Counted from the first letter of the stretch, positions 38,407 through 64,000 are shown. The stretch: DNA of 64,000 nt from a virus (IMGVR_UViG_3300035204_002571:17921-81920); one strand, 5' to 3'. Numbers and translations are program-made. Notes: generated by a model not told the origin, from the sequence alone.

Positions 38407-39492
38407 ATGAGTGCATTAAAAATTAGATCGCAGGCGATGCTTGGCACAACTCATAGTTGGGCCGTTACCATAAGAAGTCTTCTTAGAGAGTTCCGAGCAA
38501 TGGGGCATGGCCTATATTTGAATAGTATAAATGGTTATGATTTATATCCAAAGCAGTGGAATAAATTTAAGAGGGAATGTGGAGATGCAGATATAGACTT
38601 AACCTACACATTGCCAAGAAACTTTCCGCATAGATTTAACAGAAATTCCAAATTAAAATTAGCAATATATAATTATGAAACTAGTATTTTGCCTCAAGTT
38701 TGGTCTGATAAAATAAAGCATATAGATTATGCCTTGCCATCAAGCAGATTTTCAAAAGAAGTTTTTGTTAACTCGGGCTGGCCAGAGGAAAAGTGCATCG
38801 TAATTCCTCATGGCGTTAACTTAAAAGACTTTCAGGATAAATCCAAAGTAAATAATCTTAAGACAAGAAAGAAATTTAAATTTTTAAACGTTTCTATTCC
38901 TCATTATAGAAAAAATATAGATGTTTTGGTCGATGCATATTATAGCGCATTTACAGACAGTGATGATGTTTGTCTTTTGTTAAAAGTTAAGCTTGAAAAG
39001 CCAAAATATAAGTTTGAATGCGATGTAATTAAGCAGATTCTAAAGGCTCAAAAAAAGCACAAGGGGAAAAGGCTGCCGCAAGTAGAGGTTGTGCAGCATA
39101 AGTATGATAGTATGGTTCCCTTATATAATACGTGTCATAGTCTAGTTAGCGCATCTTCCGCAGAAGGCTTCGGATTACCCTTGCTGGAGGCTTTGGCAGC
39201 AGGGATGGTGGTTATAGCGCCGAACTGCACAGGTCAGCTTGATTTTTTAAATAGAAGAAATTCCTTATTAGTTGATGTTAAGGAGATAAAGGCAACAGCT
39301 AAGTATCAGTACTGGAGGCCCTCTCCTGGTGCGAAAACTTTTCTTCCAGAGGTTGAATCGTTAGCAGAAAATATGAAAAATACTTATGAAAATCATAAAA
39401 AATTAAAGAAAAAATTTAAAACAGAAGCTAAAAAAACAGTAGAAAAATTTACTTGGGAAAATGCTGCAAAACAAATATTGGATATTTCATGA
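38407..39492 (+). CDS. Glycosyltransferase, GT-B (GT4-like)
   Basis: VIPHGV, HYRKN and the EX7E motif SSAEGFGLPLLEALAAG; ends FTWENAA. Confidence 0.9.
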   Translation: MSALKIRSQAMLGTTHSWAVTIRSLLREFRAMGHGLYLNSINGYDLYPKQWNKFKRECGDADIDLTYTLPRNFPHRFNRNSKLKLAIYNYETSILPQVWSDKIKHIDYALPSSRFSKEVFVNSGWPEEKCIVIPHGVNLKDFQDKSKVNNLKTRKKFKFLNVSIPHYRKNIDVLVDAYYSAFTDSDDVCLLLKVKLEKPKYKFECDVIKQILKAQKKHKGKRLPQVEVVQHKYDSMVPLYNTCHSLVSASSAEGFGLPLLEALAAGMVVIAPNCTGQLDFLNRRNSLLVDVKEIKATAKYQYWRPSPGAKTFLPEVESLAENMKNTYENHKKLKKKFKTEAKKTVEKFTWENAAKQILDIS

Positions 39493-41009
39493 ATATATTA
39501 GATTCTTATAAAAAGAATAATTGGAAAACAAAGGGCGTAATGTTTTCTGATAAAAATATTATAATGAACTCAAAGTCTAAATTATCCTCAGAATTATCTA
39601 ATTTTAACTCTGTATCTATAAAGATAATTGGCAAAAAGATATCCGGAAATGGTCATCTAATTTTATCTATAAAAAATAAAAAGAATGAAATATTATTTTC
39701 TAAAAATGTAAATTTTACGAAAACATCTTGGTCGGAGCATTCTTTTAAATTTAAAAATAAAGTTGAAAATGGAGTATTAGAGCTGTCAAGGGGCAAGACA
39801 TCTTTCGGCAGAGTAGAGATAGGCAGAATCGTTTTAGATGATAATAGGCCAAAGGTTATGCCGAAGAAGAGAAGAGGCAATGATAGCCATTTTGATAATT
39901 ATTTAAATCTTTTAAGTCAATTTTCTTTAAAGAAGAAGGTTGCCGTAATTATTCCTTATGGAATATACGGAGGTGGAGAGGTATATTTGAAGAATATTTT
40001 TGCAAATACTAAAGATATTTTTAATATTGATTTTTTATATTTGTCAAAAAATACACTTAAGTTTGAAATGTCAAATACAAACATAAAACATAAAGACATT
40101 GGAAATTTAAATCGTCTATCTGCAACACTAGTCAACAATAGGTACGATACAGTTATTTTTTATAATAGCGCAAGAGTTTATAATGTAGTCTCAAAGCTGA
40201 AGGTGGAAGATAAAATAAATTCAAACATCATTGAAATATATCATAGTGATTTTCTTTGGCAGGATGCAGTCGCCAAGCTGAGAGAAAGGGTGGGTGTTGA
40301 CTTTATATTTAGAGTTAGTCAAAATTTAGCTGTTGATATCTTGGGCGTACCAGATGAAAGAAAGATGTTTGTTCCGGTAGGGATTGATACTAAGCTTTTT
40401 ATAAGAAAAGAAAATACAGAATTGAGAAGCAAGCTGGGGATTGATAAAAATAAAACTATATTTGGAATGGTGGCCAGATTGTCTCCTGAGAAAAATATAG
40501 AATATGCATTAAGGTTGGTTAAGGGATCAAGAGACATACATTTGCTAATTATAGGCTCAGGGCCATTATCCGGAGCGTTGCAAAGACTTGTTAAGGAAGA
40601 TAAGATAGATAATGTATCATTTTTGGGATATAAAAATAATGTTCAAGAATTTTATAATATTTTTGATGCATTTTTATTAACCTCAAAAATAGAGGGAACC
40701 CCAATATCAATTCTTGAAGCGATGTCATGCTCTTTGCCTATTTACTCAACAGATGCAGGGCAGATAAAGAATGATTTCGGTCATCTAGATAATTTTCATA
40801 TATTGAGTGGCTCCCCAGATGATGACAAAGAGTTCATAAAAAGACAAATAAATATGCCTAATTACTGTCAAAACCTAAGAGAGTATATAGTTGAAAATCA
40901 TAATATTGATATAGTCTCAAATAAGTTTTTTACAAATATTTTAAATGGTTCATTAAACTTTATAGAAAAAGATAAAGATACAGTTATAGTTTCTGGAGAA
41001 TATATATAA
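39489..41009 (+). CDS. GT4-like glycosyltransferase with extra N-terminal beta-rich (CBM-like) domain
   Basis: Start ATG 39489 (ATGA overlap). YGGGE, VPVGID, ARLSPEKN, TSKIEGTPISILEAM. ~130-aa beta-rich N-terminal extension. Confidence 0.85.
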   Translation: MNILDSYKKNNWKTKGVMFSDKNIIMNSKSKLSSELSNFNSVSIKIIGKKISGNGHLILSIKNKKNEILFSKNVNFTKTSWSEHSFKFKNKVENGVLELSRGKTSFGRVEIGRIVLDDNRPKVMPKKRRGNDSHFDNYLNLLSQFSLKKKVAVIIPYGIYGGGEVYLKNIFANTKDIFNIDFLYLSKNTLKFEMSNTNIKHKDIGNLNRLSATLVNNRYDTVIFYNSARVYNVVSKLKVEDKINSNIIEIYHSDFLWQDAVAKLRERVGVDFIFRVSQNLAVDILGVPDERKMFVPVGIDTKLFIRKENTELRSKLGIDKNKTIFGMVARLSPEKNIEYALRLVKGSRDIHLLIIGSGPLSGALQRLVKEDKIDNVSFLGYKNNVQEFYNIFDAFLLTSKIEGTPISILEAMSCSLPIYSTDAGQIKNDFGHLDNFHILSGSPDDDKEFIKRQINMPNYCQNLREYIVENHNIDIVSNKFFTNILNGSLNFIEKDKDTVIVSGEYI

Positions 41010-42130
41010 TGAGTAATGACTTTCCATCTATAAGATTTTTTGGACGGCCCCATGGGAAGGGAGGATATGGAAATGCCACGAGAAATATTTGCCTGGCCTT
41101 TTCCAGATCCGCTGTAAATACGAGGTTTGAACTAAAGGGTGACAAAAAATTTGTTGATAAAAACTTAAATAATTTTGATGGAACGCCAAAGGTTGACCTC
41201 TATCTTCATACTCCTCCGTTTTCAAGGCATAGATCAAATAATTATAAAATTGGATATTTTTATTGGGAGACAAGTATATTGCCGAAAAGTTGGGCAAAAG
41301 ATATTTGCAAGAATGTTAATGAACTCTGGGTGCCTTGCAACTTGACAAAGACGGCGTGTTTAAGAAGCGGCTTTAGTGGCCCTATAGAGATTCTTCATAC
41401 ACCATGTGATACTGATGTTTCTTTTTCCAATGTAGCGATACCATCTCCTATGACGGAAGAATTGATCTTGTCCGATAATACTTTTAAATTTTATTCTATT
41501 TTCCAATGGGGAGAGAGAAAGGGTTATACAGAGCTTTTAAAGTCTTACTATAAAGAATTTGATGGTGATGATAATGTTATTTTGATATTAAAAGTAAACC
41601 CAATAAGAAGTGATAAGAATAATATTGCAAAAATTAAATCAGATATTTTAAAGATTAAAAAGATGGTAAACAAAAAGAATTCTCCAAAAATATATCTGAT
41701 TACAGACCATCTGAACAAACAGGCTCTTATGGGCCTTCACAGGGCTTGTGACGCCTTTGTGCTCCCTCATCATGGCGAGGGCTGGGGGATGCCTATACAT
41801 GACGCTATGATGTGTGACAGTCACATTATAACTACATCATTTGGCGGCATAACAGAATTTTTAAATAATGACAATGCATTTGTAATAGATCACACTCTTG
41901 GGGCTGTAAAGCCGGTTAGCTGGAGTCCATGGTATCAGCCGTATCAGAAGTGGGCATACCCAAAGGTTCAGCACCTCAGAGTGCTTATGAGGAATCTTTA
42001 TGAAAACAAAGATAAGTACTCAAGCAAACTAGAGAGCGCAAGGGTTTTGGCAGCATCTTTGGATATAAAATCTTGCTCCGAAAGAATTGAGCAAATATTA
42101 TTACAAAAAAGATTTAAAAGGTTTTTATAA
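41009..42130 (+). CDS. Glycosyltransferase, GT-B (GT4-like), paralogue of 38407
   Basis: GGYGNA, FYWETSILP, GERKG, PHHGEGWGMPIHDAM. Confidence 0.88.
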   Translation: MSNDFPSIRFFGRPHGKGGYGNATRNICLAFSRSAVNTRFELKGDKKFVDKNLNNFDGTPKVDLYLHTPPFSRHRSNNYKIGYFYWETSILPKSWAKDICKNVNELWVPCNLTKTACLRSGFSGPIEILHTPCDTDVSFSNVAIPSPMTEELILSDNTFKFYSIFQWGERKGYTELLKSYYKEFDGDDNVILILKVNPIRSDKNNIAKIKSDILKIKKMVNKKNSPKIYLITDHLNKQALMGLHRACDAFVLPHHGEGWGMPIHDAMMCDSHIITTSFGGITEFLNNDNAFVIDHTLGAVKPVSWSPWYQPYQKWAYPKVQHLRVLMRNLYENKDKYSSKLESARVLAASLDIKSCSERIEQILLQKRFKRFL

Positions 42131-43062
42131 TGGCGAAAATATTAAAAATAGCAGACTGGCTGGTTCATGGCGGCCATCAATATGAGTTTTTTAAAACTAA
42201 TCATGTATTTTTCTGTACAAAGCCAAGCGGCTTCGCCCCAACTCCGCAAGATTTGGGTAGACCAAGAAATAAGAATGTAAATTATGTTACAGAAGCTAGG
42301 TTATCAAATGAGGCTTATGACATACTCATGGTAAGAACTGGCGTTAATCCTCATAAGTATAAAACACTTAGGTATAAAAGAGGAAATACCCCAGGGATTG
42401 CCGTTGTTCAGACGCACACTCCATCGTCATCTGTGCCGAAATGGGTAAGGTGTATGGTTTGGAATTCTAAAGATACAATGGTCAAATATATGCAAAAATT
42501 CCCGGGTAAAAAACATTTCTATATTCCACATGGATTTGATCCAAATGAGTTTGCAGATTTAAATGTAGAAAGAAACAATAGGGTTCTCAGCGCGGTAAGT
42601 GTTTTTGAAAAAAGAGGGAGCCTTTTGGGGTTTAATGAGTGGAGGTGGGTATCTAATAGGATTGGGAAGTGCGATTTGCTGGGTCACGGCAATGAAGATC
42701 TTAAAGAATCTATAGGATCATTTTCTTTGACCAAATTGGTTAGAAAATATAATAAATATGGTGTTTTTTTAAATACAACAACAAAAAGCGCCATGCCAAG
42801 AACTAGAGCTGAGGCTTTAATGTGCGGAACGCCATTAGTCACAACGAATAATTTTGGTATAAACAAGTATTTGACTCATGGCAAAAACTGCCTTTTTGCC
42901 AACACCAAAGAGGATATGCTTAAGTGTGTAAAAAAGGTCTTGGCATCAAAGAGCTTGCAGGAAGACTTGGGGGCTGCAGGTAGGGAGGCGGCAATTAAAC
43001 ATTTTCATATTAATTTGTATATTAAAAGATGGAATGAAGTATTCAAAGAGGCTCTTAGATGA
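42130..43062 (+). CDS. Glycosyltransferase, GT-B (GT4-like)
   Basis: IPHGFD, SAMPRTRAEALMCGTPLVTT, LGAAGREAAIKHF. Confidence 0.82.
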   Translation: MAKILKIADWLVHGGHQYEFFKTNHVFFCTKPSGFAPTPQDLGRPRNKNVNYVTEARLSNEAYDILMVRTGVNPHKYKTLRYKRGNTPGIAVVQTHTPSSSVPKWVRCMVWNSKDTMVKYMQKFPGKKHFYIPHGFDPNEFADLNVERNNRVLSAVSVFEKRGSLLGFNEWRWVSNRIGKCDLLGHGNEDLKESIGSFSLTKLVRKYNKYGVFLNTTTKSAMPRTRAEALMCGTPLVTTNNFGINKYLTHGKNCLFANTKEDMLKCVKKVLASKSLQEDLGAAGREAAIKHFHINLYIKRWNEVFKEALR

Positions 43063-43925
43063 AAAAGGTGCTTGCTATAACAGACTCCTATAATTGGGCC
43101 ACTTATTTTAGAGCAAAAAATTTAAAGGAGAATTTAAAAAAATATAATTTTCGAATTATATCATTTCATGATATAAAAAAAGTAAATTTTAATGATTTTG
43201 ACATTGTTTATGTTCTTAATTGGCCTATTTATGGCTATATAAGACATAAGATATCAAAAAATAGAAAATATAGACTTGTAACGGGCATATCTAGTCATAT
43301 TGGCAGGAAAAATGCAAAAGAAATGAAAACATTTTTTTCTATTTTTGATTCAATTGGGGTTTCAAACAAGTTTTTGTTTAAAGAGTTTAAAAACGCAAAT
43401 ATAAAAAATATTGTCTATACTCCGTTTGGCGTAAATCATAATATTTTCAAAAAAACAACAAATCCAAATGATTATAAGTTTATATTTGGTTGGGTCGGAA
43501 ACGATAAGAGGCCGGTTAAGAGATATGGCGAAATATGCAAAGTTTTTAAGCAATTAGGGCCAAAATATAAACTATTAACAGTCACTCAAGGGTCAGGGTT
43601 TTCGAGAGAAAAGATGGCGAAGTTTTACAATTCTATTAGCGCTATAATTTGTTATAGCGAATCAGAGGGGACTCCAAATCCTGTTTTAGAGGCGGCTATG
43701 TGTGGCAGGCCTGTTATCTCCACGCTTGTTGGAAATGTGCCTGAGCTCATGGAGGGTGTTAAAGGCTTTCGTCCTGTTAATTCTTATAAATCATTGCTGT
43801 CTGCTGTAGAGAGGTATGGGGATAGAGTTGATTTGAATAATATTGGATCACGAGTCGGCGCGGCAGCCCAAGACGACTGGACCTGGAAGATCAAGTCTAA
43901 AAACTTTGTAAGGCTTTTGGGATAA
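43059..43925 (+). CDS. Glycosyltransferase, GT-B (GT4-like)
   Basis: TPFGVN, GWVGN, SESEGTPNPVLEAAMCGRPVIST. Confidence 0.88.
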   Translation: MKKVLAITDSYNWATYFRAKNLKENLKKYNFRIISFHDIKKVNFNDFDIVYVLNWPIYGYIRHKISKNRKYRLVTGISSHIGRKNAKEMKTFFSIFDSIGVSNKFLFKEFKNANIKNIVYTPFGVNHNIFKKTTNPNDYKFIFGWVGNDKRPVKRYGEICKVFKQLGPKYKLLTVTQGSGFSREKMAKFYNSISAIICYSESEGTPNPVLEAAMCGRPVISTLVGNVPELMEGVKGFRPVNSYKSLLSAVERYGDRVDLNNIGSRVGAAAQDDWTWKIKSKNFVRLLG

Positions 43926-43927
43926 GT

Positions 43928-45013
43928 ATGAAGATTTTAATAGCATGTACCCAATACCCTTATCATGGTGGAGCTGCAACAAATTCATACGCCCTTGTGA
44001 AGGGTTTGAGAAAAAGAAAACATAGAGTATGTGGTCTATTTTTTGAAGATAGTCGGGCCAATTGTGATCCAGACAATATTGGAAAGATTATAAAATCAAG
44101 CTCTAAAATTGGAAGCTATAACCAATTGCGTAAAAAAATAATAAGAATGCTAGGCGGAAGTCCAGATATTATATTGGCTAAAAATTATGTTGCACCTATA
44201 TATTGCAGAAAGTTATTTCCGAATTCAAAAATAATTTATTTAGTATCTGGGGCTCCTATTATGATGCCTTTGTCTAAGGATAATATATCTGCGATTAGAT
44301 ATCTATCTATGGATAATTCAAAAATAAGGAAAAAGTATAGTAAAAACCTTCTTTCTCTAGAGAAGGGGGCTATAAGGGCTTGTGATGCAGTTATCTTGAA
44401 TAGCGGAATATCTAGAAAAGTTTTTTTAAAAACAAATGCTAAAAGCTTGCAAAATAGAAAAGTTTTTAAACCTTTAAATACCTCTATAGTTATAAACAGA
44501 AGAGGGAGGGGTACGAAGGCTAAAGATTTTAATAAGCGAGAGGTAGATATAGCCTTTATTTGTTCTAATTTTTCCAGAACAGTTAAGAACGCAGGATTTG
44601 CCAAGAAGCTTCTTCTTAACAAAAGGCTTGCCGGAAAAACCAAGCTTGTAGTTGGGCAAAACAGTAAAATGTTTGCAAATGTTCCAAATATTATAACTAA
44701 AGGTAAAGTGGGCAATAGTACAATTTTTAGTTACTTGAATAAAACAAAGCTAGTCATTTGTACGTCTTATTTTGATGCCTCGCCAAACATAATTAATGAA
44801 GCGCGAGCATCAGGCTGCAATGTTCTTGTGTCTAGAAACTGCGGCTGGCACAGAAGGTATGGAGCCAAAAGCGTGTGCAAAGATGTATATGGATTAAATG
44901 AGTGGATTAATAAAATTTTGTCATCATGCAAAGGGGAGATTGAATATCCAATCATACAGTCAGATAAAGATATTCTTATAGCATTGGAAAGCATGATCAA
45001 GGAGCTGCTATGA
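43928..45013 (+). CDS. Glycosyltransferase, GT-B (GT4-like)
   Basis: MKILIACTQYPYHGGAA, RTVKN, TSYFDASPNIINEARASGCNVL. Confidence 0.8.
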   Translation: MKILIACTQYPYHGGAATNSYALVKGLRKRKHRVCGLFFEDSRANCDPDNIGKIIKSSSKIGSYNQLRKKIIRMLGGSPDIILAKNYVAPIYCRKLFPNSKIIYLVSGAPIMMPLSKDNISAIRYLSMDNSKIRKKYSKNLLSLEKGAIRACDAVILNSGISRKVFLKTNAKSLQNRKVFKPLNTSIVINRRGRGTKAKDFNKREVDIAFICSNFSRTVKNAGFAKKLLLNKRLAGKTKLVVGQNSKMFANVPNIITKGKVGNSTIFSYLNKTKLVICTSYFDASPNIINEARASGCNVLVSRNCGWHRRYGAKSVCKDVYGLNEWINKILSSCKGEIEYPIIQSDKDILIALESMIKELL

Positions 45014-45075
45014 GTATAATTATAGGATGGCTGACCGGGCAAGCGGGTTTGAAAATTATGCCTGAAAGGTTGTGA
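45010..45075 (+). other. 21-codon translationally coupled mini-ORF (MSIIIGWLTGQAGLKIMPERL), possible gene remnant
   Basis: ATG overlaps the upstream stop (ATGA), with AGGAG just upstream. Fills the gap before 45082. Confidence 0.35.
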
Positions 45076-45081
45076 GAAACT

Positions 45082-46146
45082 ATGTTTGGTACTAAATTTT
45101 GGTATAAAAAGAAAAAAATATTATTTGTAGTAGATGTTCAAGGATGGGCATATGACGATAGAGCAAAAACATGGAAATCTTTGCTTAAAGATGAGTTTGA
45201 AATTGATATACTTAGATTGTCAGAGTTTCCAGTTGGAAGTTATAGTTCAGAGTTTTCAATTATAAATAGAAAAATTATAAATGCTGCCAATGAAGGGGTG
45301 CCCTTAAATTGTTCAAGAATTGTTACAGATCCTAGTTCTGTTAATTATTCTTTTTCAGATTTAGGTAAAATAAAAAAATTAAAACCAGTATTTGATCATA
45401 AAAAATATGATGGGATTGTTTTTTTCTATCATAAGGCGATTGCAGACAGAAGGCTTTTGGCAACTCCCTTTCCAATGAATAAGGTAGCGGTATGTATTAA
45501 TAATGAAAAGTGGAAAGAAGAAGGTGCAGAGTATTTTGCAAAAACTTTTTATTCAGAAGTAAAGATTTTGGTTGGATGTAATAAATATATAGTTGATTCT
45601 TTTTCTGGGCTTCATCCTAACGTAATGCGCGCTTCCCAATGTGTAGATAGTTCTGTCTTTTTTAAAGATAAAAATCTTAATACTAAGCCTAAAAGGAGAT
45701 TTACAGTTGGGTGGTCTGGCAACCATAGTAATCCGCTCAAAAGAGTTGAGTTAATAAAAAAGGCTTGTAACAAAGCAGGTGTAACATTATCTATAAAAAA
45801 AGATCTTAGTAGGAAGGATCTTAATGTTTGGTATAACAGTATTGATATAGTAATTTGTGCTAGTGAGTCTGAAGGAGGCCCTATGTTGTTGCTGGAGGCT
45901 GGCGCTGTTGGGGTGCCGGCCATTACAGCTAATGTGGGGCTCGCAAGAGAGATGGTGAGTCATGAAAAAAATGGTTTAATCTTGAAAGAAGGCAGCGTCA
46001 AAAACATAAAAGAACTTATTTTAAAATTAAAAAACAAACCAGATCTCGTAAAAGCTTATGGAAGAAGAGTTCATCAAGAGATTTTAAAAAATTGGACATA
46101 TGAGGCAAGGTTGCATGAGATCAGGGGGGTGTTGAGGGCGCTATGA
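45082..46146 (+). CDS. Glycosyltransferase, GT-B (GT4-like)
   Basis: ILFVVDVQGWAY, VGWSGN, ASESEGGPMLLLEAGAVGVPAIT, HEKNGLI. Confidence 0.88.
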   Translation: MFGTKFWYKKKKILFVVDVQGWAYDDRAKTWKSLLKDEFEIDILRLSEFPVGSYSSEFSIINRKIINAANEGVPLNCSRIVTDPSSVNYSFSDLGKIKKLKPVFDHKKYDGIVFFYHKAIADRRLLATPFPMNKVAVCINNEKWKEEGAEYFAKTFYSEVKILVGCNKYIVDSFSGLHPNVMRASQCVDSSVFFKDKNLNTKPKRRFTVGWSGNHSNPLKRVELIKKACNKAGVTLSIKKDLSRKDLNVWYNSIDIVICASESEGGPMLLLEAGAVGVPAITANVGLAREMVSHEKNGLILKEGSVKNIKELILKLKNKPDLVKAYGRRVHQEILKNWTYEARLHEIRGVLRAL

Positions 46147-48217: not shown

Positions 48218-48224
48218 AGAATTT

Positions 48225-48857: not shown

Positions 48858-48871
48858 ATTAAATAAATATG

Positions 48872-48892: not shown

Positions 48893-48930
48893 AATCCAGG
48901 CAGTTAGCTAAAAGCAAGAAAAGGATATTA

Positions 48931-52721: not shown

Positions 52722-52723
52722 GG

Positions 52724-56963: not shown

Positions 56964-57907
56964 CACCTTTAGTTGCGCCACTCTGCCCAGGTTCTGATAT
57001 TTTAGTAAAAGATTTTAATTTAGATTATTTTATATCTAAAATAAATAATAAAGAATATTTTTCATTTTGGAAAATTAATCATGGGCACTGGGAGCAGCTA
57101 TATTCATATTTTGTTATGTTGAATGGACAGCATTATACAAAAAATGAAAATTCTAATAAAAATAATATTGCTCCAAAACAAATATCAGATAGTGATCTTA
57201 TGGGATATTGCAAATGGGCAGTAAAAAGATCACACTCCCCTTTGTTTGGGGCTTCATGGGAAGAGTTGTATAAAGTAATTAGTTTAATTCATAGTGTTTA
57301 TCTTAATGGCCACCCATCCGAAGGTGATGATTATATTTTCGCATTATCAGATGGATCCCATAGAGATTATACATCTATAAATGATAATTTATATTCTAAA
57401 TTCAAAAAATATTATGTACATAATATACATGATGTTATTAGAGCATCTATTTATAATCAGAATGGATTGATATTATGTAAAAATAACCTCGAATATGAAG
57501 AGCATTTGAGATTTGTGCCTGCTCGTGGAAACATTTTTAAAAAAGCCTATAGAGGTGGCATTTTGACAAATCTTTTTGACGCCATACAGGGAATGAGGAT
57601 TCTATATGTGGGGCCTGGGAAAATTGATAATGAAAAGTATCCTCATATAGACGCAATTAAAATTCCTTCTTCAAGAGCAATTATGAAGCGAGATAATACT
57701 CTTTCTGAAATTAAAGCATGGTGCGAGATGAGAGAACATGAATCAATAGACCAAATTATATTTTTTTGTTGCGGATATACGCAGGTATATTTAATACATA
57801 CGTTACACAAGATGTATTCTAATACTTTTTTAATAGATGTAGGGCAATCATTAGATCCTTTGATAAAAAAGAATCACACAACTAAGCCATGGGAGGTGAA
57901 GCGATGA
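56960..57907 (+). CDS. Hypothetical protein, possibly GT-D fold (DUF1792-like) glycosyltransferase
   Basis: FSFWKINHG near the N-terminus and IIFFCCG...FLIDVGQSLDP at the C-terminus loosely resemble the GT-D pattern (S..RFGDGE...IDIG). Divergent. Confidence 0.35.
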   Translation: MTPLVAPLCPGSDILVKDFNLDYFISKINNKEYFSFWKINHGHWEQLYSYFVMLNGQHYTKNENSNKNNIAPKQISDSDLMGYCKWAVKRSHSPLFGASWEELYKVISLIHSVYLNGHPSEGDDYIFALSDGSHRDYTSINDNLYSKFKKYYVHNIHDVIRASIYNQNGLILCKNNLEYEEHLRFVPARGNIFKKAYRGGILTNLFDAIQGMRILYVGPGKIDNEKYPHIDAIKIPSSRAIMKRDNTLSEIKAWCEMREHESIDQIIFFCCGYTQVYLIHTLHKMYSNTFLIDVGQSLDPLIKKNHTTKPWEVKR

Positions 57908-58560
57908 CGAGTAAGGCAGTGGGCGTTTATAGAGTAACTGAAGAATTTGAAGAAGAGCTTTGCAGATACACAGGGGCTTCTTATGCTGTTGCTGTTGATA
58001 ATTGTAGCAACGCTTTATTTCTTGCGTTAAAATACGAAAAGGTTGGAGGAACTGAGATAAGCATACCCTGCAGAACATATCCATCTGTACCTTGTGAAAT
58101 TATACATGCTGGGGCAAAGGTTGCTTTTGAAAAAGTGGAGGGCACTACAATTTCTGGAGCATATCAGCTTAAACCCTCATGTGTTTGGGATTCGGCATTA
58201 AGATTTACTCACAATATGTATATGCCGGGAACCCATATGTGTGTTTCTTTTACGGGTCCATTTAAACACTTTAGACTAAGCAAGGGAGGGGCGATATTGA
58301 CTGATAATAAAGATGCATATGAATGGTTCAAAAGAGCTAGATGCTCTGGAAGAAGGCCATGCCCATATCATGAAGATGATTTAGATATGCTTGGATGGAA
58401 CTTTTATATGATGCCTGAGCTGGCAGCACGAGGCCTTCTTCTTATTAGGCAGTTTTATACTCAGATAGGCAATGAGCCCATACATCATGAGGATGCAACT
58501 ATGTCATATCCAGATTTATCACAATTTAAAATATATAAACAAACAAAGGAAACTTTATGA
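57904..58560 (+). CDS. DegT/DnrJ/EryC1/StrS-family PLP sugar aminotransferase, short form (~218 aa)
   Basis: FEEELCRYTGASYAVAVDNCSNALFLAL, WDSA, SFTGPFKH..GGAILTD, GWNFYM. Start ATG 57904 (ATGA overlap). Confidence 0.85.
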   Translation: MTSKAVGVYRVTEEFEEELCRYTGASYAVAVDNCSNALFLALKYEKVGGTEISIPCRTYPSVPCEIIHAGAKVAFEKVEGTTISGAYQLKPSCVWDSALRFTHNMYMPGTHMCVSFTGPFKHFRLSKGGAILTDNKDAYEWFKRARCSGRRPCPYHEDDLDMLGWNFYMMPELAARGLLLIRQFYTQIGNEPIHHEDATMSYPDLSQFKIYKQTKETL

Positions 58561-59231
58561 AAAATCAGTTAAAAAAAGATGTTTCATCAGAGAAGGTTTT
58601 TGGTATTGGGATTCACAAGACAGGCACAACTACCCTGAGGGATATGTTAAAATTATTGGGTTATAAGATGTGTCCGCAAGTTAAGGCTTATAGGAAGGTA
58701 GAAAATTGGATTGATAAAGATTATTCTACTATAATAGAGTTTGCCAAACCTTATGAGGCCTTTCAGGACTCACCTTGGTGTTTTCCTAAGTTTTATGAAA
58801 AATTAGATAATGCTTTTATAAATTCAAAATTTATATTAACCATAAGAGATTCTTATGACTGGCTGGAGTCATATAGGGGGCAGCTTGATAAATTAGACTA
58901 TATGAATTCTGGCCGAAAAGAATGGCTGGTTTTTGGCAAGTATACTGCGAAAGATCTCAATAAAATTATATATAACTGTCTTCCAACGAATCAGAAGAGT
59001 TTTTTAAAAAATAAAGATAAATTTTTAAAGGTATATAATAAACATAATAAAGATGTTGTTTCTTATTTTAAAAATAAATATAGAAAAGATTATAATAAAA
59101 AACTTTTAGTTGTAAATTGGGCATCAGGCGATGGGTGGGCTGAGATTTTGGGGTTTGTACAAAAAAGAAAAGATGACATTTATCATAACTCTCCAATGAT
59201 TTGGTCACAAAAGAGAAAGGAGCGGAAATGA
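58557..59231 (+). CDS. Sulfotransferase family protein
   Basis: KVFGIGIHKTGTTTL, FQDSPW, SKFILTIRD...WLES, DGWAEILGF. Confidence 0.85.
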   Translation: MKNQLKKDVSSEKVFGIGIHKTGTTTLRDMLKLLGYKMCPQVKAYRKVENWIDKDYSTIIEFAKPYEAFQDSPWCFPKFYEKLDNAFINSKFILTIRDSYDWLESYRGQLDKLDYMNSGRKEWLVFGKYTAKDLNKIIYNCLPTNQKSFLKNKDKFLKVYNKHNKDVVSYFKNKYRKDYNKKLLVVNWASGDGWAEILGFVQKRKDDIYHNSPMIWSQKRKERK

Positions 59232-59956
59232 AAGGCATAATATTAGCGGGAGGCCTGGGGACTAGGTTAGCACCCCTGACGAGAAATGATAATAAACATC
59301 TTTTACCAGTATATAACAAAAGAATGATTGAATATCCTATAAAAACTTTGGTTGATGCTGGGATTAAAGATATTATCTTGGTAACTGGAGGAAAAAGGCC
59401 TGGAGCTTTTTTGGAGCTTTTAAAAAATGGAAAAGATTATAACGCAAACAGAATTTATTATACATACCAAGATGGAAATGGAGGTATTTCAGATGCTTTA
59501 AAGCTGGCAGAGCCATTTTTAGAGCCAGGAGAATCATGCATTGTTATTTTGGGTGATAATTATTTTGAAGATAATATTGCAAAGAATATTGAGGAGTGGA
59601 ATGGGTCTGGAGCTTCTGTGTTTTTAAAGCATGTTGAAGACACTTCAGGCTTCGGCATTGCCGAGATACAGGGCAATAAGATAGTTTCGATAGAGGAAAA
59701 GCCTGTAAAGCCAAAATCTAATCTTGCAATACTTGGACTTTATATGTTTGATCATAATGTTTGGAGGTATATAAAGCAAATTAAACCTTCTATTAGAGCC
59801 GAGTTAGAAATAACAGATGTTTTAAAAATTTATATGAAAGATAATAATCTCAGCTATACTTTTTATAATAAATTTTGGTCAGATATGGGAATTTTTCAGA
59901 CATGGGTAGACGTGTCAATTCGAATGGCAAAAAAAGATATAAAGGAGAGACAGTGA
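59228..59956 (+). CDS. rmlA: Glucose-1-phosphate thymidylyltransferase (RmlA/SpsI-like)
   Basis: MKGIILAGGLGTRLAPLT...KHLLPVYNK, LGDN, EEKP, RAELEITD, WSDMG. Start ATG 59228 with AAGGAG. Confidence 0.88.
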   Translation: MKGIILAGGLGTRLAPLTRNDNKHLLPVYNKRMIEYPIKTLVDAGIKDIILVTGGKRPGAFLELLKNGKDYNANRIYYTYQDGNGGISDALKLAEPFLEPGESCIVILGDNYFEDNIAKNIEEWNGSGASVFLKHVEDTSGFGIAEIQGNKIVSIEEKPVKPKSNLAILGLYMFDHNVWRYIKQIKPSIRAELEITDVLKIYMKDNNLSYTFYNKFWSDMGIFQTWVDVSIRMAKKDIKERQ

Positions 59957-60918
59957 AGATTCTGGTGACAGGACATTGCGGTTTTATTGGACAAAATTTT
60001 GTCAGAATGTTCAAAGAAGAACATGACATAGTGGGCGTTGATAAATTGGGGTATGCTTCAGATTCGTCTGCTTTTAATCTGTGCCCTTCTTACAAGGATG
60101 ATATATCAAGTCCAGATTTTATTGATAAATTTAAGCAGATAAATAAGAACGGCTCTTTTGATGCCATTGTTAACTTCGCCGCAGAAAGCCATGTAGATAA
60201 TAGCATTAATTCCCCAGGCCCATTTATGTATAGTAATTTTATTGGAACATATAATATGCTGGAAATCGTTAGAAGATATAATATTAAAAGATTTTTACAG
60301 ATTGGAACAGATGAGGTTTATGGGGATTTGAATGCAGATGATCCACCATTTGCAAATTTATATGAGATGAAACCCAGCTCTCCATATTCTGCGTCTAAAG
60401 CTGCGGCCGATCTTCTTGTTTTGTCATATTGTAGAACTTATAATATAAATGGAGTAGTTACTCGTTCTTGTAATAATTATGGTCCATATCAATACAGGGA
60501 AAAATTAATTCCCGTTATTATAACAAATTTATTGAATAATAAAAAAATTCCTATATATGGAACAGGACGAAATATAAGAGAATGGATTCATGTTCGTGAT
60601 AATTGCGAAGGCATCATGGCAGCTTTAAAGTTTGGAGAATCAGGTGGGATATATCATATGGGTAGTGGGGTAGAATTGACAAATTTAGATATAGCAAGAC
60701 AAATATTGTCTATTATGGATAAGCCAGAAACCTTAATATCAATGGTAGAGGATCGCCCGGGCCATGACTTTAGGTATTCATTGGATTCAAAAGAAACACA
60801 TTCTAAGCTAAAGTGGAAGCCAAAAATAATGCTTCAAGATGGGTTGAGAGAAACTGTTGAATATTATAAAATAAAGCTGTCTAAAGATGGGGATAAAAAT
60901 GAAAAATCCATATTCTGA
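59953..60918 (+). CDS. rmlB: dTDP-glucose 4,6-dehydratase
   Basis: GTG start at 59953 with AGGAG. VTGHCGFIG, FAAESHVDNS, TDEVYG, PSSPYSASKA, NNYGPYQ..EKLIP, DRPGHDFRY. Confidence 0.92.
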   Translation: MKILVTGHCGFIGQNFVRMFKEEHDIVGVDKLGYASDSSAFNLCPSYKDDISSPDFIDKFKQINKNGSFDAIVNFAAESHVDNSINSPGPFMYSNFIGTYNMLEIVRRYNIKRFLQIGTDEVYGDLNADDPPFANLYEMKPSSPYSASKAAADLLVLSYCRTYNINGVVTRSCNNYGPYQYREKLIPVIITNLLNNKKIPIYGTGRNIREWIHVRDNCEGIMAALKFGESGGIYHMGSGVELTNLDIARQILSIMDKPETLISMVEDRPGHDFRYSLDSKETHSKLKWKPKIMLQDGLRETVEYYKIKLSKDGDKNEKSIF

Positions 60919-61963
60919 ATTGCCAGAAAAAAGCTTTTGGAAGCTAGCTATTGCTCAAAAACATATTTTTGATGTGGAGTCACTTTGGGTTCCAAAGTTT
61001 GATATTAAACCTGAAGATAAAGTAGTGACTTATGGTTCTTGCTTTGCACAGCATATAGGAAGAGCCTTGAGGAGTAGGGGCTTTGATTGGTTTATTGCAG
61101 AGAAGTCTATTCCTGGATTAAGTCAAGAAAATATTAAAAAATATAACTATAATCTTTTTTCGTCACGAACAGGAAATATTTATACTACAACTTTATTGCA
61201 GCAATGGGTTAATTGGGCGTTAGAAATTAATGAGATCCCATCAGAAGTGTGGGAAGATAATGGTCGTTTTTATGACCCCTTCCGCCCGACAGTCGAGCCA
61301 AATGGCTTTTCCTCCAAAGAAGAGTTGATTGAGTCGCGCAATTGGACAGTAGAGTGCTTTAAGGAATCAATTGTTAATGCTGACTTTTTTGTATTTACAC
61401 TTGGCTTAACTGAGCGTTGGATTAATTCCAACCTTTCTTATGAGTATCCGATGTGTCCTGGTACGGCGGCCGGTGTATTCAATGATGAGGTGCATTCTTT
61501 TGATAATTTACAATTTTCACAAGCAATTCGAGCTTTGGCTTATTCGCTTAGGAAGATGCGAAAAATAAATCCTAAATTGAAGTTTCTTCTTACAGTCTCT
61601 CCAGTGCCGCTCACTGCAACAAAATCAGATGATCATGTATTAGTTGCAACGATGGCGTCCAAATCTATATTAAGGTCCATTGCTGGTCAGTTAGCGTGTA
61701 ATAAAAATTATGTTGATTATGTCCCATCTTATGAGATTATTAACAGCCCTTCTTTTGGAGGCATGTTTTTTGAGCCCAACAAAAGAAGCGTGAGCAAGTC
61801 AGGTGTGAGTTTTGTTATGGACATGTTTTTTAACTCGCTTCATAATAAATTTGGCCCCAAAGTTGAGGCGGCACATATTGACGAATCAGATGAAGATATG
61901 GATGAAAATATGGATGAAGCAATCTGTGAAGAAGAGCTGCTTGAGGCTTTTGCGAAAAAATGA
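60899..61963 (+). CDS. GSCFA-domain protein (SGNH-like)
   Basis: TYGSCFAQHIG, FVFTLGLTE.W, LLTVSPVPL.AT, SKSILR, YVPSYEI. Confidence 0.9.
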   Translation: MKNPYSELPEKSFWKLAIAQKHIFDVESLWVPKFDIKPEDKVVTYGSCFAQHIGRALRSRGFDWFIAEKSIPGLSQENIKKYNYNLFSSRTGNIYTTTLLQQWVNWALEINEIPSEVWEDNGRFYDPFRPTVEPNGFSSKEELIESRNWTVECFKESIVNADFFVFTLGLTERWINSNLSYEYPMCPGTAAGVFNDEVHSFDNLQFSQAIRALAYSLRKMRKINPKLKFLLTVSPVPLTATKSDDHVLVATMASKSILRSIAGQLACNKNYVDYVPSYEIINSPSFGGMFFEPNKRSVSKSGVSFVMDMFFNSLHNKFGPKVEAAHIDESDEDMDENMDEAICEEELLEAFAKK

Positions 61964-62682
61964 AAATATGTGTTTTAGGAAATAGTCATGTAGGAGAGAT
62001 TAAGCACGCTTGGGATATATTGTCACCTTGCCATAAAGACATTAGCTTTACTTTTTTTGCAAGCAGAGCGAGTGGTCTAAAGGAGGCCGTTCTTCGTGGA
62101 AAGGAATTGGTTGCTGCATCTGAGAAGTTAAAAGGTGATTTTAAGTTCACTTCTGGTGGCAAAAAAACTGTTAAGCTTAATGAGTATGATATTTTTTTAA
62201 TTTATGGTTTCGGAATTGACGCTTATTGCCCACCTATAGGAGTATATTCTTCTGATTGTTTGGCTTCCGCAATAAAAGATCATTATAAAAAGAGTAAAGG
62301 CTTTAGGCTTGCAGAGCTTATTAGGTCGGCTGTTGATACTAAGATTTTGATCGCACACGTTCCGCTTCCATCAGGCAAAGAGTCAAAGTTCAACAAAAAT
62401 ACGTCAGTCAGTAATGAGGTAGATAATTACGCACGAATGATATCGACCGCAAATAATATATTGTTTAAACCATTGAATATGGAAATCCTTGAACAGTCAC
62501 CTCTTACCAGGGTTAATAATGGATATGTAACGCGGTCAATTTACTCCAAGGGGTCCAGGAGTCTTTCTGTTGGCGATAAAATGGATGATGCGTTACACCC
62601 TAAGGGAGAAAATAAGCACATGAATATTGATTTTGCCGTTATCTTTCTCAATAATATGTTAAATAAGTTGAAGAGCTTTTAA
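61960..62682 (+). CDS. SGNH-like hypothetical protein (possible O-acyl transferase/esterase)
   Basis: N-terminal ICVLGNSH and C-terminal ENKHMN..F. Confidence 0.5.
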   Translation: MKICVLGNSHVGEIKHAWDILSPCHKDISFTFFASRASGLKEAVLRGKELVAASEKLKGDFKFTSGGKKTVKLNEYDIFLIYGFGIDAYCPPIGVYSSDCLASAIKDHYKKSKGFRLAELIRSAVDTKILIAHVPLPSGKESKFNKNTSVSNEVDNYARMISTANNILFKPLNMEILEQSPLTRVNNGYVTRSIYSKGSRSLSVGDKMDDALHPKGENKHMNIDFAVIFLNNMLNKLKSF

Positions 62683-62699: not shown

Positions 62700-62715
62700 G
62701 TAAGCGGTTAATAAT

Positions 62716-63510
62716 ATGAATGATTATAAAATAGCACAAATAGGGAACGGCTTTGTAGGCAACGCTTTAAATAGATCCTTCAAAAAAAATGGAGTAGATA
62801 CAGTTGTTTATGACAAATTTCAAAATATAGGAAAGCTTGAAGATGTTTTAGATTCAAGCATAGTCTTTCTATGCCTTCCTACGCCTTATGTTGAGGGCGA
62901 GGGCTTTGATCTAAGTGCTATAAAAGAAAATTTTGAAAAATTAAGAAAATTAAAATATAAAGGTTTATGTGTAATTAAGTCCACGGTTGAACCAGGCGTG
63001 TCAAGAAGCCTTTCTAAAAAATATAATTTAAACGTTGCGCATAATCCAGAGTTTCTGACCGAAAGAACTGCTTTTGAAGATTTCGACAGTCAGGAGCATA
63101 TCGTTTTGGGCAAAACTTCAGAATCAGAACTTTTTAATTGTTTGATTCTTTTATACAAAAATCTTTATCCAAATGCGTTTATCTCTATTTGTACTTCGGA
63201 CGAGTCGGAGGCTATGAAGTTATTTGCTAATTCTTTTTATGCACAAAAGGTAATGATATTTAATGAGTTTTATTTATTATGCAATGCAATTGGGCTAGAT
63301 TTTGAAGCGGTTAAGCTTTTGATGTTAAAGAATAATTGGATTGCACCCCACCATATGACGGTTCCAGGTCCAGACGGAAAGATGGCCTACGGTGGGCATT
63401 GCTTTCCAAAGGATACAAATGCATTAAATACATTTATGGAAAAGAATAATACAAGATGTGAAGTCATAAATGCTGTGATAAAAGAACGAAATAAAATGAG
63501 AGAGGATTAA
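62716..63510 (+). CDS. UDP-glucose/GDP-mannose dehydrogenase family, short form lacking C-terminal domain
   Basis: IGNGFVG, LCLPTP, IKSTVEPG, HNPEFLTE, KLFANSF, YGGHCFPKD (catalytic Cys). 264 aa. Confidence 0.88.
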   Translation: MNDYKIAQIGNGFVGNALNRSFKKNGVDTVVYDKFQNIGKLEDVLDSSIVFLCLPTPYVEGEGFDLSAIKENFEKLRKLKYKGLCVIKSTVEPGVSRSLSKKYNLNVAHNPEFLTERTAFEDFDSQEHIVLGKTSESELFNCLILLYKNLYPNAFISICTSDESEAMKLFANSFYAQKVMIFNEFYLLCNAIGLDFEAVKLLMLKNNWIAPHHMTVPGPDGKMAYGGHCFPKDTNALNTFMEKNNTRCEVINAVIKERNKMRED

Positions 63511-63513
63511 ACT

Positions 63514-64000
63514 ATGGTTACAGCTATAGTCACAGGATCGGCAGGCTTTATCGGAGGACACTTAACAGAAGCTCTGTTAAAGGCTGGAAATAGAGTAATA
63601 GGCATAGATGATATGCGCTCTGGCCTTGAGTCCACAATGGAATTGCATATTTCTTATGAAAATTTTATTCCAAAATATTATGATATAAGGTCTGAAAAAA
63701 TTGATGGTGTATTTAGAGAGTTTTCTCCTAATGTAGTTTTTCATTTAGCAGCGATTCCAGGGGTGACTCCTTCGGTTAAGGAGCCTTTTATTTCTAATGA
63801 TGTAAATGTTGGAGGAACATTGAATCTTCTTAATTCTGCAAGAAAATATAATGTTGATAGATTTATCTTCTCTTCATCATCTTCGGTCTATGGAGGCACA
63901 GACAAGTTGCCTACGAAAGAAGATTGTTTGTTGAATCCAAAATCTCCGTATGCTTTGCAGAAAAAAATAGGAGAAGAATATTGCAAGATGTTTTCAGACT
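63514..64000 (+). CDS. NAD-dependent epimerase/dehydratase (extended SDR), 3'-truncated by window edge
   Basis: Not in the ORF track. Manual translation: MVTAIVTGSAGFIGGHL...FHLAAIPGV..S...NVGGTLNLL...FSSSSSVYG...PKSPYALQKK (YxxxK). Confidence 0.9.
   Translation, partial: MVTAIVTGSAGFIGGHLTEALLKAGNRVIGIDDMRSGLESTMELHISYENFIPKYYDIRSEKIDGVFREFSPNVVFHLAAIPGVTPSVKEPFISNDVNVGGTLNLLNSARKYNVDRFIFSSSSSVYGGTDKLPTKEDCLLNPKSPYALQKKIGEEYCKMFSD

Follow-up and report, generated by a model that had tools for sequence, protein, structure and literature searches.

We found that a fragment of an uncultured giant marine phage, by its genes a tailed phage with a contractile tail (Caudoviricetes), carries an island of soluble glycan-synthesis enzymes directly after its tail-fibre genes. 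The window, the whole stretch analysed here, comprises 64,000 nucleotides (17921-81920) of contig IMGVR_UViG_3300035204_002571; coordinates are counted from its first letter, and all features lie on the + strand. Thirty co-oriented ORFs occupy 38407-64000, and 11 of them encode sugar transferases (9 GT-B and 2 mini-GT29). The last ORF runs to the contig end, which cuts the cluster, so that the island has at least 30 genes. Our preferred reading, to which we assign a probability of about 45%, is a cytoplasmic, lipid-carrier-free, phage-encoded glycan assembly line that most likely coats the phage's own particle proteins. Its acceptors would probably be head proteins or the two giant fibre/baseplate proteins whose genes immediately precede the island.

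The contig comes from IMG/VR, where it is entered as a virus, and it encodes sheath, tube-like, gp25-like and gp6/J proteins. The gp25-like baseplate protein (20027-20458; phrog_2669, E 2e-13) and the gp6/Baseplate_J wedge protein (20467-23790; phrog_6, E 3e-42; PF04865, E 1e-21) form a baseplate entry whose best cultured match is Bacillus phage G, at 32% identity. The last structural genes before the island (23799-38366) encode two giant fibre/baseplate-distal proteins of 3315 and 1533 aa, the candidate acceptors, and the larger one carries a Laminin_G_3 lectin-like domain at aa 3073-3158. Both are syntenic and 43-72% identical in G001, G002, L025, L028/29 and L030. The virus record G001, a syntenic relative of 222 kb, contains TerL (phrog_675, E 1e-60), portal (E 5e-52) and major head (E 1e-69) genes together with DNA polymerase and endolysin genes. 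With the contractile-tail genes found here, these markers bear out the phage origin of the contig. CheckV completeness is 19% for the 82-kb contig and 66% for G001. Two markers of the 'Moraphage' lineage (PMC12619734), PF00152 (lysine-tRNA ligase) and PF07724 (ClpA), were absent from the 222-kb relatives, which are 66-67% complete.

The 1533-aa gene is separated from the first transferase gene, GT4 no. 1, by a gap (38367-38406) that measures 40 bp, as initially annotated, and holds no terminator-like hairpin. An extended -10-like element, TGGTATAAT, lies 9 nt upstream of the GT4 no. 1 ATG and is conserved in G002 (L026), L025 and L028/29 despite diverged flanks; it also precedes the tape-measure-like gene of G001. 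As a promoter-like sequence it belongs to the ordinary extended -10 class and carries no information on timing. The fibre-to-GT4 junction is present in contigs of five sequence-distinct relatives (proteins 43-79% identical), which establishes that related phages keep the adjacency of baseplate and glycan genes. Across the 38.4-kb junction GC content drops from 0.39 to 0.34, and the relatives show an equal drop. A 2044-nt Logan contig from an independent assembler spans 36638-38681 with 0 differences and even depth. Together with the synteny in the five relatives, this bridging contig answers the earlier worry of a misassembly at 38.4 kb: the junction is real.

Four core GT4 genes open the island; a variable cassette of 24 genes, against 4-7 in relatives, separates them from a conserved distal block, and the ORFs overlap at 22 of the 29 junctions. 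The core GT4 genes, all of the GT-B type (38407-39492, 39453-41009, 41009-42130 and 42130-43062), match the Pfam families Glycos_transf_1, Glyco_trans_1_4 and 1_2. Three further GT-B genes (43059-43925, 43928-45013 and 45082-46146) bring the GT4/GT-B genes recognized by Pfam within 38407-46146 to seven. The next two ORFs (46143-47270 and 47222-48217) have no Pfam match and were assigned GT4 and CgeB-like GT-B folds by ESM Atlas structure matches (TM 0.70-0.80). Several island GT-B genes are CgeB-like, and their closest Atlas clusters are mostly viral. Homologs of GT4 no. 1 are 58-79% identical in the five relatives containing this gene, and those of nos 2-4 are 33-67% identical in L025, G001, L029, L030 and L033; L028 stops inside GT4 no. 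2. Three of the GT-B genes at 43059-48217 have homologs in L030 and L033 at 43-48% identity.

Two mini-GT29 genes (48198-48857, PF00777 E 3e-21; 49632-50246, PF00777 E 2e-25) flank a SAM methyltransferase gene (48931-49635; Methyltransf_11). The ulosonate module behind them includes a DHDPS/NAL-like class I aldolase with an extra N-terminal domain (50325-51521), KDO8P synthase (KdsA; 51518-52303; NF003543, 247 bits against a cut-off of 242), a sulfotransferase (52724-53413) and a PseF/KdsB-like cytidylyltransferase of the CMP-ulosonate type (53410-54162), which scores below cut-offs (111 bits against 206). A 149-aa ORF at 52272-52721 is a doubtful candidate for a sulfotransferase remnant. Pfam and NCBIfam matches then identify a WbqC-like protein (54152-54862), a GH130/GH43-like beta-propeller (54859-55821), a GNAT (55814-56242), a second methyltransferase (56217-56963), a half-length DegT-like aminotransferase (57889-58560) and a second solid sulfotransferase (58557-59231). 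The same tailoring block holds a 315-aa ORF without an assigned family (56960-57907). RmlA (59201-59956; NTP_transferase, E 4e-49), RmlB (59875-60918; dTDP-glucose 4,6-dehydratase, 362 bits against a cut-off of 365), a GSCFA-family protein (60887-61963; GSCFA, E 2e-45) and a 240-aa ORF without an assigned family (61960-62682) come next. The distal block, also recognized by Pfam/NCBIfam, starts with a short NDP-sugar dehydrogenase-like protein (62716-63510) and continues with an NAD-dependent epimerase/dehydratase (63514-64000) that the contig end truncates. The DegT-like half is 79% identical in L040, the single relative with a homolog of the 315-aa ORF (31%); the distal dehydrogenase and epimerase are 72% and 78% identical in G001 and 62% and 69% in L033. 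In relatives, the distal block also encodes a LysM protein and a fusion of GT4 with a TubZ/FtsZ-like domain, and the G001 glycan block ends at endolysin and replication genes. Cumulatively, these assignments confirm the inventory of the initial annotation: about 29 co-oriented, often overlapping genes, about nine GT-B transferases, two GT29s, and nucleotide-sugar and sulfo/methyl/acyl tailoring enzymes.

The CMP-Kdo pathway is incomplete in the window, with KdsA at the NCBIfam cut-off and the cytidylyltransferase below cut-offs. Because neither KdsC nor KdsD has a family match there (Pfam/NCBIfam), these steps may come from the host, or another route may run via the DHDPS-like aldolase, in whose family the Schiff-base Lys269 and Tyr235 are conserved. 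The dTDP-L-rhamnose pathway is represented in the window by RmlA and RmlB only, with no RmlC or RmlD. As DegT-like, GNAT and WbqC-like genes accompany these two, an N-acylated 4-amino-4,6-dideoxyhexose is the more likely end product of the dTDP branch. An anionic glycan is a reasonable expectation, given the sulfotransferases, the NDP-sugar dehydrogenase and the predicted Kdo-type acid.

GT29 enzymes, the 'sialyltransferase' type, are known mainly from animals and plants. Both island GT29s score above the PF00777 family cut-off, and in the family alignment they keep the catalytic His and sialylmotifs L (VGSSG...ID..D.V.RFN.A), S (P..G...C...G..P.L.GFD), III (HYWE) and VS (H....E). The family profile aligned over the whole domain with pig ST3Gal-I (E 1.6e-20). 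An AlphaFold model (pLDDT 91, pTM 0.89) retrieved GT29 structures only (ST8SiaIII, ST6GalNAc2, ST3Gal-I, ST6Gal1) as its first 30 Foldseek matches in the PDB (E 1e-11 to 2e-7, TMq 0.59-0.66); the first non-GT29 fold match was Maf. Motifs and predicted fold place these proteins in CAZy GT29, with the GT-A variant fold. The family was found in only 4 MAG/SAG genomes among about 185,000 species and sits mainly on viral contigs. Of the 22 viral loci, 18 (13 of the 17 distinct ones) have a cytidylyltransferase homolog no more than 10 kb away, KdsA is nearby in 8 of the 17, and a GT29-aldolase-KdsA-cytidylyltransferase module, likewise present in 8 of the 17 distinct loci, is new here as a recurrent arrangement. 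Sialylmotifs and GT29 fold are common to the phage proteins, plant RCKT1/MGP2 (the CMP-Kdo transferase of RG-II, PMC11288761) and the E. coli K6 GT29-GT107 protein (PMC13171606), and motifs L, S, III (HYWE) and VS and the fold are likewise shared with bacterial GT29 (PMC5811610). Like the known GT29 ulosonic-acid transferases, the mini-GT29 genes are linked to CMP-Kdo rather than sialic acid synthesis. The proteins are minimal by comparison (about 205 aa against a catalytic domain of about 270-300 aa) and, unlike those enzymes, have neither a membrane anchor nor the conserved disulfide Cys pair.

A simple hydropathy scan found no membrane-helix-like segment in any ORF of 38407-64000, and no Pfam match to Wzx, Wzy, ABC-2 or priming transferases was obtained in the island. 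G000, G001 and G002 all lack Bac_transf (PF02397). The G001 block contains no multi-span ORF from fibre gene to endolysin, where the block stops without the wzx, wzy or ABC genes that might have been expected downstream; across its 222 kb, only a tape-measure-like protein has four or more membrane-like segments. The reported absence of polytopic, Wzx/Wzy/Wzm/Wzt and priming genes therefore stands in the island, in its continuation in G001 and in all 222 kb. Neither priming genes nor the flippase, polymerase or transporter that mark a Wzx/Wzy-, ABC- or synthase-dependent polysaccharide locus were found in these genomes; as only 19% and 66% of the genomes is covered, exporter genes may sit in the remainder. 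As evidence, the absence is weaker than first assumed, because soluble GT4 enzymes are just as characteristic of the assembly of LPS cores and capsules on lipid acceptors of the host, whose own MsbA, Wzx or ABC systems then export the product.

In the proposed mechanism, phage-activated sugars would be made from host precursors. KdsA, the pyruvate-type aldolase and the cytidylyltransferase would supply a CMP-activated Kdo-type ulosonic acid, with host KdsC/KdsD needed; RmlA, RmlB and the DegT-like, GNAT and WbqC-like proteins would yield an aminated, N-acylated derivative of dTDP-4-keto-6-deoxyhexose; and the NDP-sugar dehydrogenase and epimerase would probably provide a uronic acid. The nine soluble GT-B enzymes would build the chain, the four conserved ones laying a clade-wide core, and the two mini-GT29s would use the CMP donor to attach the ulosonic acid. 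An acidic glycan would then be completed by the methyl- and acetyltransferases and the PAPS-dependent sulfotransferases.

We favour the particle as the target because the island begins 40 bp past a fibre gene with no terminator and the junction is kept in five relatives, because the island and G001 encode no export or priming protein and, apart from the G001 tape-measure-like protein, no ORF with four or more membrane-like segments, and because conserved flanks around a variable cassette of 4-24 genes fit a diversifying surface structure beside receptor-binding proteins. The CgeB-like GT-Bs with mostly viral Atlas neighbours, the 22 of 22 viral mini-GT29 loci that are glycan islands without membrane proteins, the occurrence of TGGTATAAT before both GT4 no. 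1 and the G001 tape-measure-like gene, and the precedent of mycobacteriophage capsid and tail glycosylation (reported in PMC12619734) point the same way. Decoration of the particle is weakened by the lack of a Ser/Thr-rich stretch or other recognizable acceptor region in structural proteins of the contig or G001 (neither the tube nor the G001 major head protein has a Ser/Thr-rich tail), by the dissimilarity of the GT genes to mycobacteriophage virion GTs, and by the reading of KdsA/KdsB sets in cyanophage S-SCSM2R as host-surface genes (according to PMC12801897).

The same enzymes could instead remodel the host envelope, a possible though less likely alternative in which lipid A-Kdo2 or undecaprenyl phosphate serves them as acceptor for a new LPS core, O-unit or capsule that host MsbA/Lpt, Wzx/Wzy/WaaL or ABC systems then export, for instance to block superinfection or keep progeny off debris. 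GT4, KdsA, cytidylyltransferase, RmlA/B and GH130-like genes are usual contents of bacterial surface-glycan loci, O-antigen loci also show flanks plus cassette, and LPS-core assembly requires no phage-encoded membrane protein. Marine myoviruses with 13 GTs, KdsA, KdsB and GH130 have been so interpreted (in PMC12801897). However, no priming transferase, ligase, flippase or transporter occurs in the island, its continuation or the 222 kb of G001; the island lies between tail-fibre genes and endolysin, not among early genes; and a virulent-looking giant phage would profit little from altering a cell soon lysed.

Sequence alone does not fix the acceptor, and the relatives' LysM protein and GT4-TubZ/FtsZ-like fusion might have cell structures as their targets. 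It is nevertheless improbable that the enzymes glycosylate host proteins or phage proteins outside the virion, or that they make a soluble or secreted oligosaccharide (decoy, matrix): we know of no precedent for such a role in a glycan block this large, and it leaves the conserved fibre-gene adjacency unaccounted for. Very improbable is glycosylation of modified genome bases against restriction. The classical GTs of phages are DNA glucosyltransferases, and DNA glycans made of several sugars exist (Pyle et al. 2024, cited in PMC12619734), but thymidylate-synthase-type hydroxymethylase is absent from G000, G001 and G002, the block occupies the late-gene part of the map from tail fibres to endolysin, and 11 transferases, a Kdo-type acid, sulfation and methylation far exceed known DNA glycans. 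Least credible of all is an artefact, either a bacterial chromosome (a prophage or contractile injection system by an O-antigen locus) or a chimera at 38.4 kb, suggested by the GC drop and by the contig being a cut fragment of exactly 81,920 bp. The shared junction and GC drop in relatives, the evenly covered bridging contig and the phage genes of G001 refute it as far as sequence data allow.

Comparable gene sets already occur in published marine phages. The cyanomyovirus S-SCSM2R (>200 kb) has 13 GTs, KdsA, KdsB, a GH130 phosphorylase and epimerases, described in PMC12801897 as 'cell wall synthesis and modification' genes and read as host-surface or DNA modification. Its genes are scattered over the genome as described there, with no sulfotransferase among those named, whereas the island genes form a single uninterrupted block tied to the tail module and include sulfotransferases. 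Its KdsA is 39% identical to the window KdsA; tblastn of GenBank phage records, S-SCSM2R included, matched LR756508.1 only and gave no GT29 match in S-SCSM2R. The mycobacteriophages Che8, Corndog and Myrna have virion glycosylation (Freeman et al. 2023, per PMC12619734), with 2-4 GT genes and glycans demonstrated at C-terminal extensions in that account. As in these phages, the island GTs are phage-encoded and soluble, without lipid-carrier machinery, and a capsid/tail glycan shield is proposed; unlike them, the island has at least 30 genes with its own sugar-nucleotide pathways and sulfation, and no C-terminal acceptor extension of that type was found on its phage's structural proteins. The two sets of GTs show no homology at E 1e-5.

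Flagellin glycosylation islands combine Maf with CMP-Pse/Leg, and the sps/cgeB system of the Bacillus spore crust decorates a protein assembly in the cytoplasm. The phage island differs in its acceptors and has no Maf family protein, but it resembles both in its soluble enzymes, nonulosonate or rhamnose-type pathways, strain-variable make-up, location beside structural genes and lack of a flippase, and sps/cgeB also in its CgeB-like GT-B genes; to our knowledge, decoration of this type has so far been demonstrated for no phage. Megavirinae fibril clusters and the chlorovirus PBCV-1 capsid rely on virus-encoded, clustered sugar-nucleotide synthesis and GTs, which act on particle proteins in the cytoplasm or virus factory. 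Those viruses infect eukaryotes and use other enzyme families; the island belongs to a tailed phage and relies on GT4 arrays, GT29s and sulfotransferases. It nevertheless shares their clustering of GTs with sugar-nucleotide enzymes, and its gene count of at least 30 is comparable to theirs, in keeping with the giant-virus-like complexity first suggested.

The window starts at base 17921 of its source and ends where this source ends, at base 81920 of a single 81,920-bp IMG/VR virus record that is about 19% complete and carries all of its large ORFs on the plus strand. Upstream of the glycan genes, we found a 1722-aa tail fibre, a 1096-aa sheath (L001:12149-15439), a tube-like protein, a gp25-like protein and a gp6/Baseplate_J protein, the closest cultured phage for the latter being Bacillus phage G (32% identity). 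A 2664-aa protein (9972-17966) is probably the tape-measure protein, as it possesses four membrane-like helices (aa 1677-1786) typical of such proteins; its length suggests a very long tail. Directly before the glycan island come two giant proteins (3315 aa and 1533 aa; 23799-38366), the larger with a lectin-like Laminin_G_3 domain. In this region and the sheath, acidic-aromatic [LV]DGY repeats occur 9 times against 0.66 expected from shuffles, at positions retained in the homologs of a relative (G001); nothing connects them with glycosylation.

Two nearly identical IMG/VR contigs of 222 kb (G001 and G002; 66-67% complete) are syntenic with the window. Identities to these relatives are 76% for gp25, 73% for the J protein, 70% and 71% for the 3315-aa and 1533-aa proteins, and 75, 61, 63 and 65% for GT4 nos 1-4, the first glycosyltransferases of the island (38407-43062); the tape-measure homolog of G001 has 2738 aa. 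G001 also encodes a terminase (E 1e-60), a portal (E 5e-52) and a major head protein (E 1e-69), together with DNA polymerase, SbcC and an Amidase_2 endolysin. Its PrkA/DUF444/SpoVR trio (11399-15897) and GroEL (144082-145737) lie beside DnaB and ribonucleotide reductase genes. A PDB sequence search gave no match for the sheath or for the G001 terminase. The junction between fibre and GT4 genes was found as well in loci L025, L028/L029 and L030 (GT4 no. 1 identity of 58-79%), making five sequence-distinct relatives with G001/G002 included. A Logan contig from a seawater run spans 36638-38681 with 0 differences and an even depth of 19-27, a check on the assembler and not on the sample, as this run may be the source sample. 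GC content falls from 0.39 to 0.34 at the junction, and the same drop in G001 indicates a property of the island rather than a chimera signal. Cumulatively, these results support three points that the initial annotation raised for checking: that the contig is phage, that the 38.4-kb junction is genuine, and that related phages keep glycan genes next to the baseplate module.

A GTA[TC]AAT/TGGTATAAT element at 38384-38392 is of an ordinary extended -10 type, uninformative on timing. As TGGTATAAT or AGTA(T/C)AAT, it stops 9 nt short of the GT4 no. 1 start codon, which implies a very short leader, and is kept while its flanks diverge, with copies at about 9985-9993 in L025, L026, L028 and L029; TTGGTATAAT is also found ahead of the tape-measure-like gene of G001. 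No terminator was found at the junction, and a scan for sigma-70 promoters exceeded chance slightly in 48-64 kb but not in 33-52 kb.

The island, running from 38407 to the contig end, contains 30 ORFs, with overlaps at 22 of 29 junctions. Pfam identified seven GT4/GT-B enzymes (38407-46146). The next two ORFs had no Pfam match; their ESM Atlas folds are GT4 and CgeB-like GT-B (TM 0.70-0.80), with nearest clusters that are mostly viral, and nine GT-B genes are thus consecutive. They are followed by a GT29 (48198-48857), a methyltransferase and a second GT29 (49632-50246), and then by a DHDPS/NAL-like aldolase, a KDO8P synthase, a 149-aa ORF, a sulfotransferase and a cytidylyltransferase. Next come WbqC-like, GH130-like and GNAT proteins, a methyltransferase, a protein of unknown function, a half-length DegT-like aminotransferase and a sulfotransferase, and after these RmlA, RmlB, GSCFA and a second unknown (61960-62682). 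A short NDP-sugar dehydrogenase and an epimerase cut by the contig end close the block. The 315-aa ORF at 56960-57907 has its sole relative in another locus, L040. Both the DegT-like protein (57889-58560; 223 aa) and the dehydrogenase (62716-63510; 264 aa) are unusually short, and the short forms are kept at 79% identity in L040 and 72% in G001, respectively. Such lengths are conserved in other viral loci; the two are reduced forms maintained by selection and not broken genes. The 149-aa ORF (52272-52721) contains only the PAPS-loop motif of sulfotransferases; a related hydrothermal-vent metagenome contig has 864 different bases in place of the surrounding stretch (52230-52725), and the ORF may be what is left of a gene at a site of recombination.

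When six lineages were compared all against all, a three-part architecture emerged, the layout of a surface-antigen locus. Part 1 consists of the four core GT4 genes, of which nos 2-4 occur in all lineages with a locus extending that far; only L033 lacks no. 1, its locus beginning just before the no. 2 homolog. Part 2 is a variable cassette of 4 genes in G001, 6 in L033, at least 7 in L030 and 24 (19.6 kb) in the window. Part 3 is a conserved distal block with a dehydrogenase-like protein and an epimerase and, later, GDP-mannose dehydratase (GMD), GT4, GT2 and GT4-tubulin genes. The vent contig (10.6 kb) matches 50439-56000 at about 97% identity for the most part, falling to about 80% in the initial 1.8 kb and with one segment exchanged, indicating that parts of the cassette circulate. 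A 1099-aa ORF inserted in the L029 cluster had no match in a PDB sequence search.

As the contig stops inside the island, its downstream continuation was read from G001. There, the epimerase is followed by two sulfotransferases, a GDP-mannose dehydratase, an unknown, a LysM protein, a GT4, a GT2 and a fusion of GT4 to a tubulin/FtsZ-like domain, beyond which lie the endolysin, a helicase loader, DnaB and PrkA/DUF444/SpoVR. No island ORF showed a membrane-helix-type peak in a Kyte-Doolittle scan, and no ORF in G001 1-47000 had more than two membrane-like segments by hydropathy; those with one or two were either small ORFs lying within genes on the opposite strand or proteins with a single segment. 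Across the 222 kb, the same kind of scan found four or more segments in the tape-measure homolog only. Bac_transf priming enzymes were absent from the island and from the relatives (66-67% complete), and no wzx, wzy or ABC genes were detected by this crude method downstream in the nearest relative, which like the window's own record is incomplete. Thus the gene content described initially, without membrane proteins, proved correct in the ORF, Pfam, ESM Atlas and hydropathy results, and in G001 the export genes that might have followed it do not appear as far as the endolysin and replication genes.

The fusion protein (824 aa; G001:22397-24871, equivalent to L010:2397-4871, minus strand) is the final gene of the glycan block, directly before the endolysin. 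It combines a GT4 domain (aa 201-339) with a tubulin/FtsZ-family GTPase domain that has a GGGTGS signature and TubZ-like RepX as its best PDB match (E 1e-14); a second-lineage homolog (L033:16518-19013) is 57% identical. It could link glycosylation with a phage cytoskeleton.

The two GT29s are only about 205-220 aa long and keep all four sialylmotifs. Their family profile aligns along the entire catalytic domain of pig ST3Gal-I (E 1.6e-20), and the first 30 structure matches to a predicted model (pLDDT 91) are all GT29, the next being the flagellin glycosyltransferase Maf. The family comprises 163 clusters (50% identity) at E 1e-30 or better; among the best 150 of these, all at E 1e-32 or below, almost all are 190-240 aa. 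A pattern scan confirmed by tblastn located these mini-GT29s in 22 IMG/VR loci on contigs of up to 459 kb; among GenBank phage records, only an uncultured 484-kb phage has one. Across about 185,000 species of prokaryotes the scan detected them in just 4 genomes, every one a MAG or SAG. One of these four, a 168.7-kb Opitutales MAG contig (CALSMY010000008.1), has many co-oriented ORFs and no membrane protein in the 20 kb around the gene, and may be a misbinned phage or prophage. Of the 22 viral loci, 18 have a homolog of the window's cytidylyltransferase within 10 kb of GT29, as do 13 when only the 17 distinct loci are counted, and in 8 of these 17 the aldolase, KdsA and cytidylyltransferase are all present; no ORF with four or more membrane-like segments was seen in the 22 loci. 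In the aldolase, for which over 300 marine homologs were found, both the lysine that forms the Schiff base and the catalytic tyrosine of DHDPS/NAL enzymes are conserved. Its extra N-terminal domain (about 100 aa; 50325-50650), similar to the 'capsule biosynthesis protein' PDB 9IQW (E 3e-8), is absent from most of these homologs and stands alone in L034 and L039. The mini-GT29 donor is likely CMP-Kdo or a near relative, given that RCKT1, a GT29 of plants, uses CMP-Kdo as its donor (PMC11288761) and that a GT29-GT107 protein of E. coli K6 has been linked with poly-Kdo (PMC13171606). Our literature search yielded no report of a phage combining GT29 with Kdo, nor of KDO8P synthase serving as an auxiliary gene in phages.

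The predicted chain would contain a Kdo-type acid and an N-acylated amino-dideoxyhexose, probably a uronic acid, O-methyl groups and sulfate, the PAPS for sulfation having to come from the host as there is no APS kinase. We put the odds that its acceptor is the proteins of the phage particle a little short of even. This reading draws on the position of the island, fixed between fibre genes and endolysin, on the lack of lipid-linked machinery, on a cassette layout adjoining receptor-binding proteins, on the CgeB-like enzymes, and on precedents in mycobacteriophages and giant viruses. Counting against it, no mucin-like Ser/Thr acceptor stretches were found in the structural proteins, nor any homology to proven virion glycosyltransferases. 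The target could instead be the host envelope, with LPS cores or capsules made on host lipids and exported by host systems; the same enzyme families build such structures, and comparable cyanophage genes are read so (PMC12801897), yet we consider this destination rather unlikely. Some other target is improbable. DNA glycosylation is very improbable, as a hydroxymethylase was not found and the chemistry is far too elaborate. It is scarcely credible that the locus is an artefact: as far as sequence data can show, the phage genes of syntenic G001 rule out a bacterial chromosome, and the recurring junction, the shared GC drop and the Logan bridge rule out a misassembly.

Our boldest reading, with a probability of roughly 0.35, is that a giant marine phage clade covers its tail fibres, or the particle as a whole, in an acidic glycan that differs between strains, bears Kdo, sulfate and methyl groups and is made wholly in the cytoplasm, and that the GT29s of about 205 aa are phage-borne transferases of CMP-Kdo or a related ulosonate, which would make them an extensive and predominantly viral branch of the family behind eukaryotic sialyltransferases. 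If abundant marine giant phage particles do carry variable acidic glycans, our picture of how they adsorb, adhere to marine gels and decay, of grazing, and of the way host defences recognise them would need rethinking. The recurrent mini-GT29/aldolase/KdsA/cytidylyltransferase module offers small soluble enzymes for a direct test of GT29 Kdo-transferase activity, long suspected from plant RG-II and E. coli K6, and gives phages a place early in sialyltransferase family history.

Marine myoviruses with large sets of glycan genes are already published, S-SCSM2R having 13 glycosyltransferases, KdsA and KdsB (PMC12801897), and core glycosyltransferase genes are reported in aquatic jumbo phages (PMC12619734). 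Unlike the latter, the relatives of the window (genomes 66-67% complete) are without two core markers of that 'moraphage' lineage, and membership in it is unsupported. We found nothing in the literature on jumbo phages with sulfotransferases. What is new here is the largest cassette of the clade, with 11 glycosyltransferases and a GH130-like protein in the cut block, a GT29-based ulosonate module of wide and mainly viral distribution, and a defined three-part architecture; if marine giant phage particles do carry such glycans, virion glycosylation would extend from a few actinophage genes to islands of giant-virus complexity.
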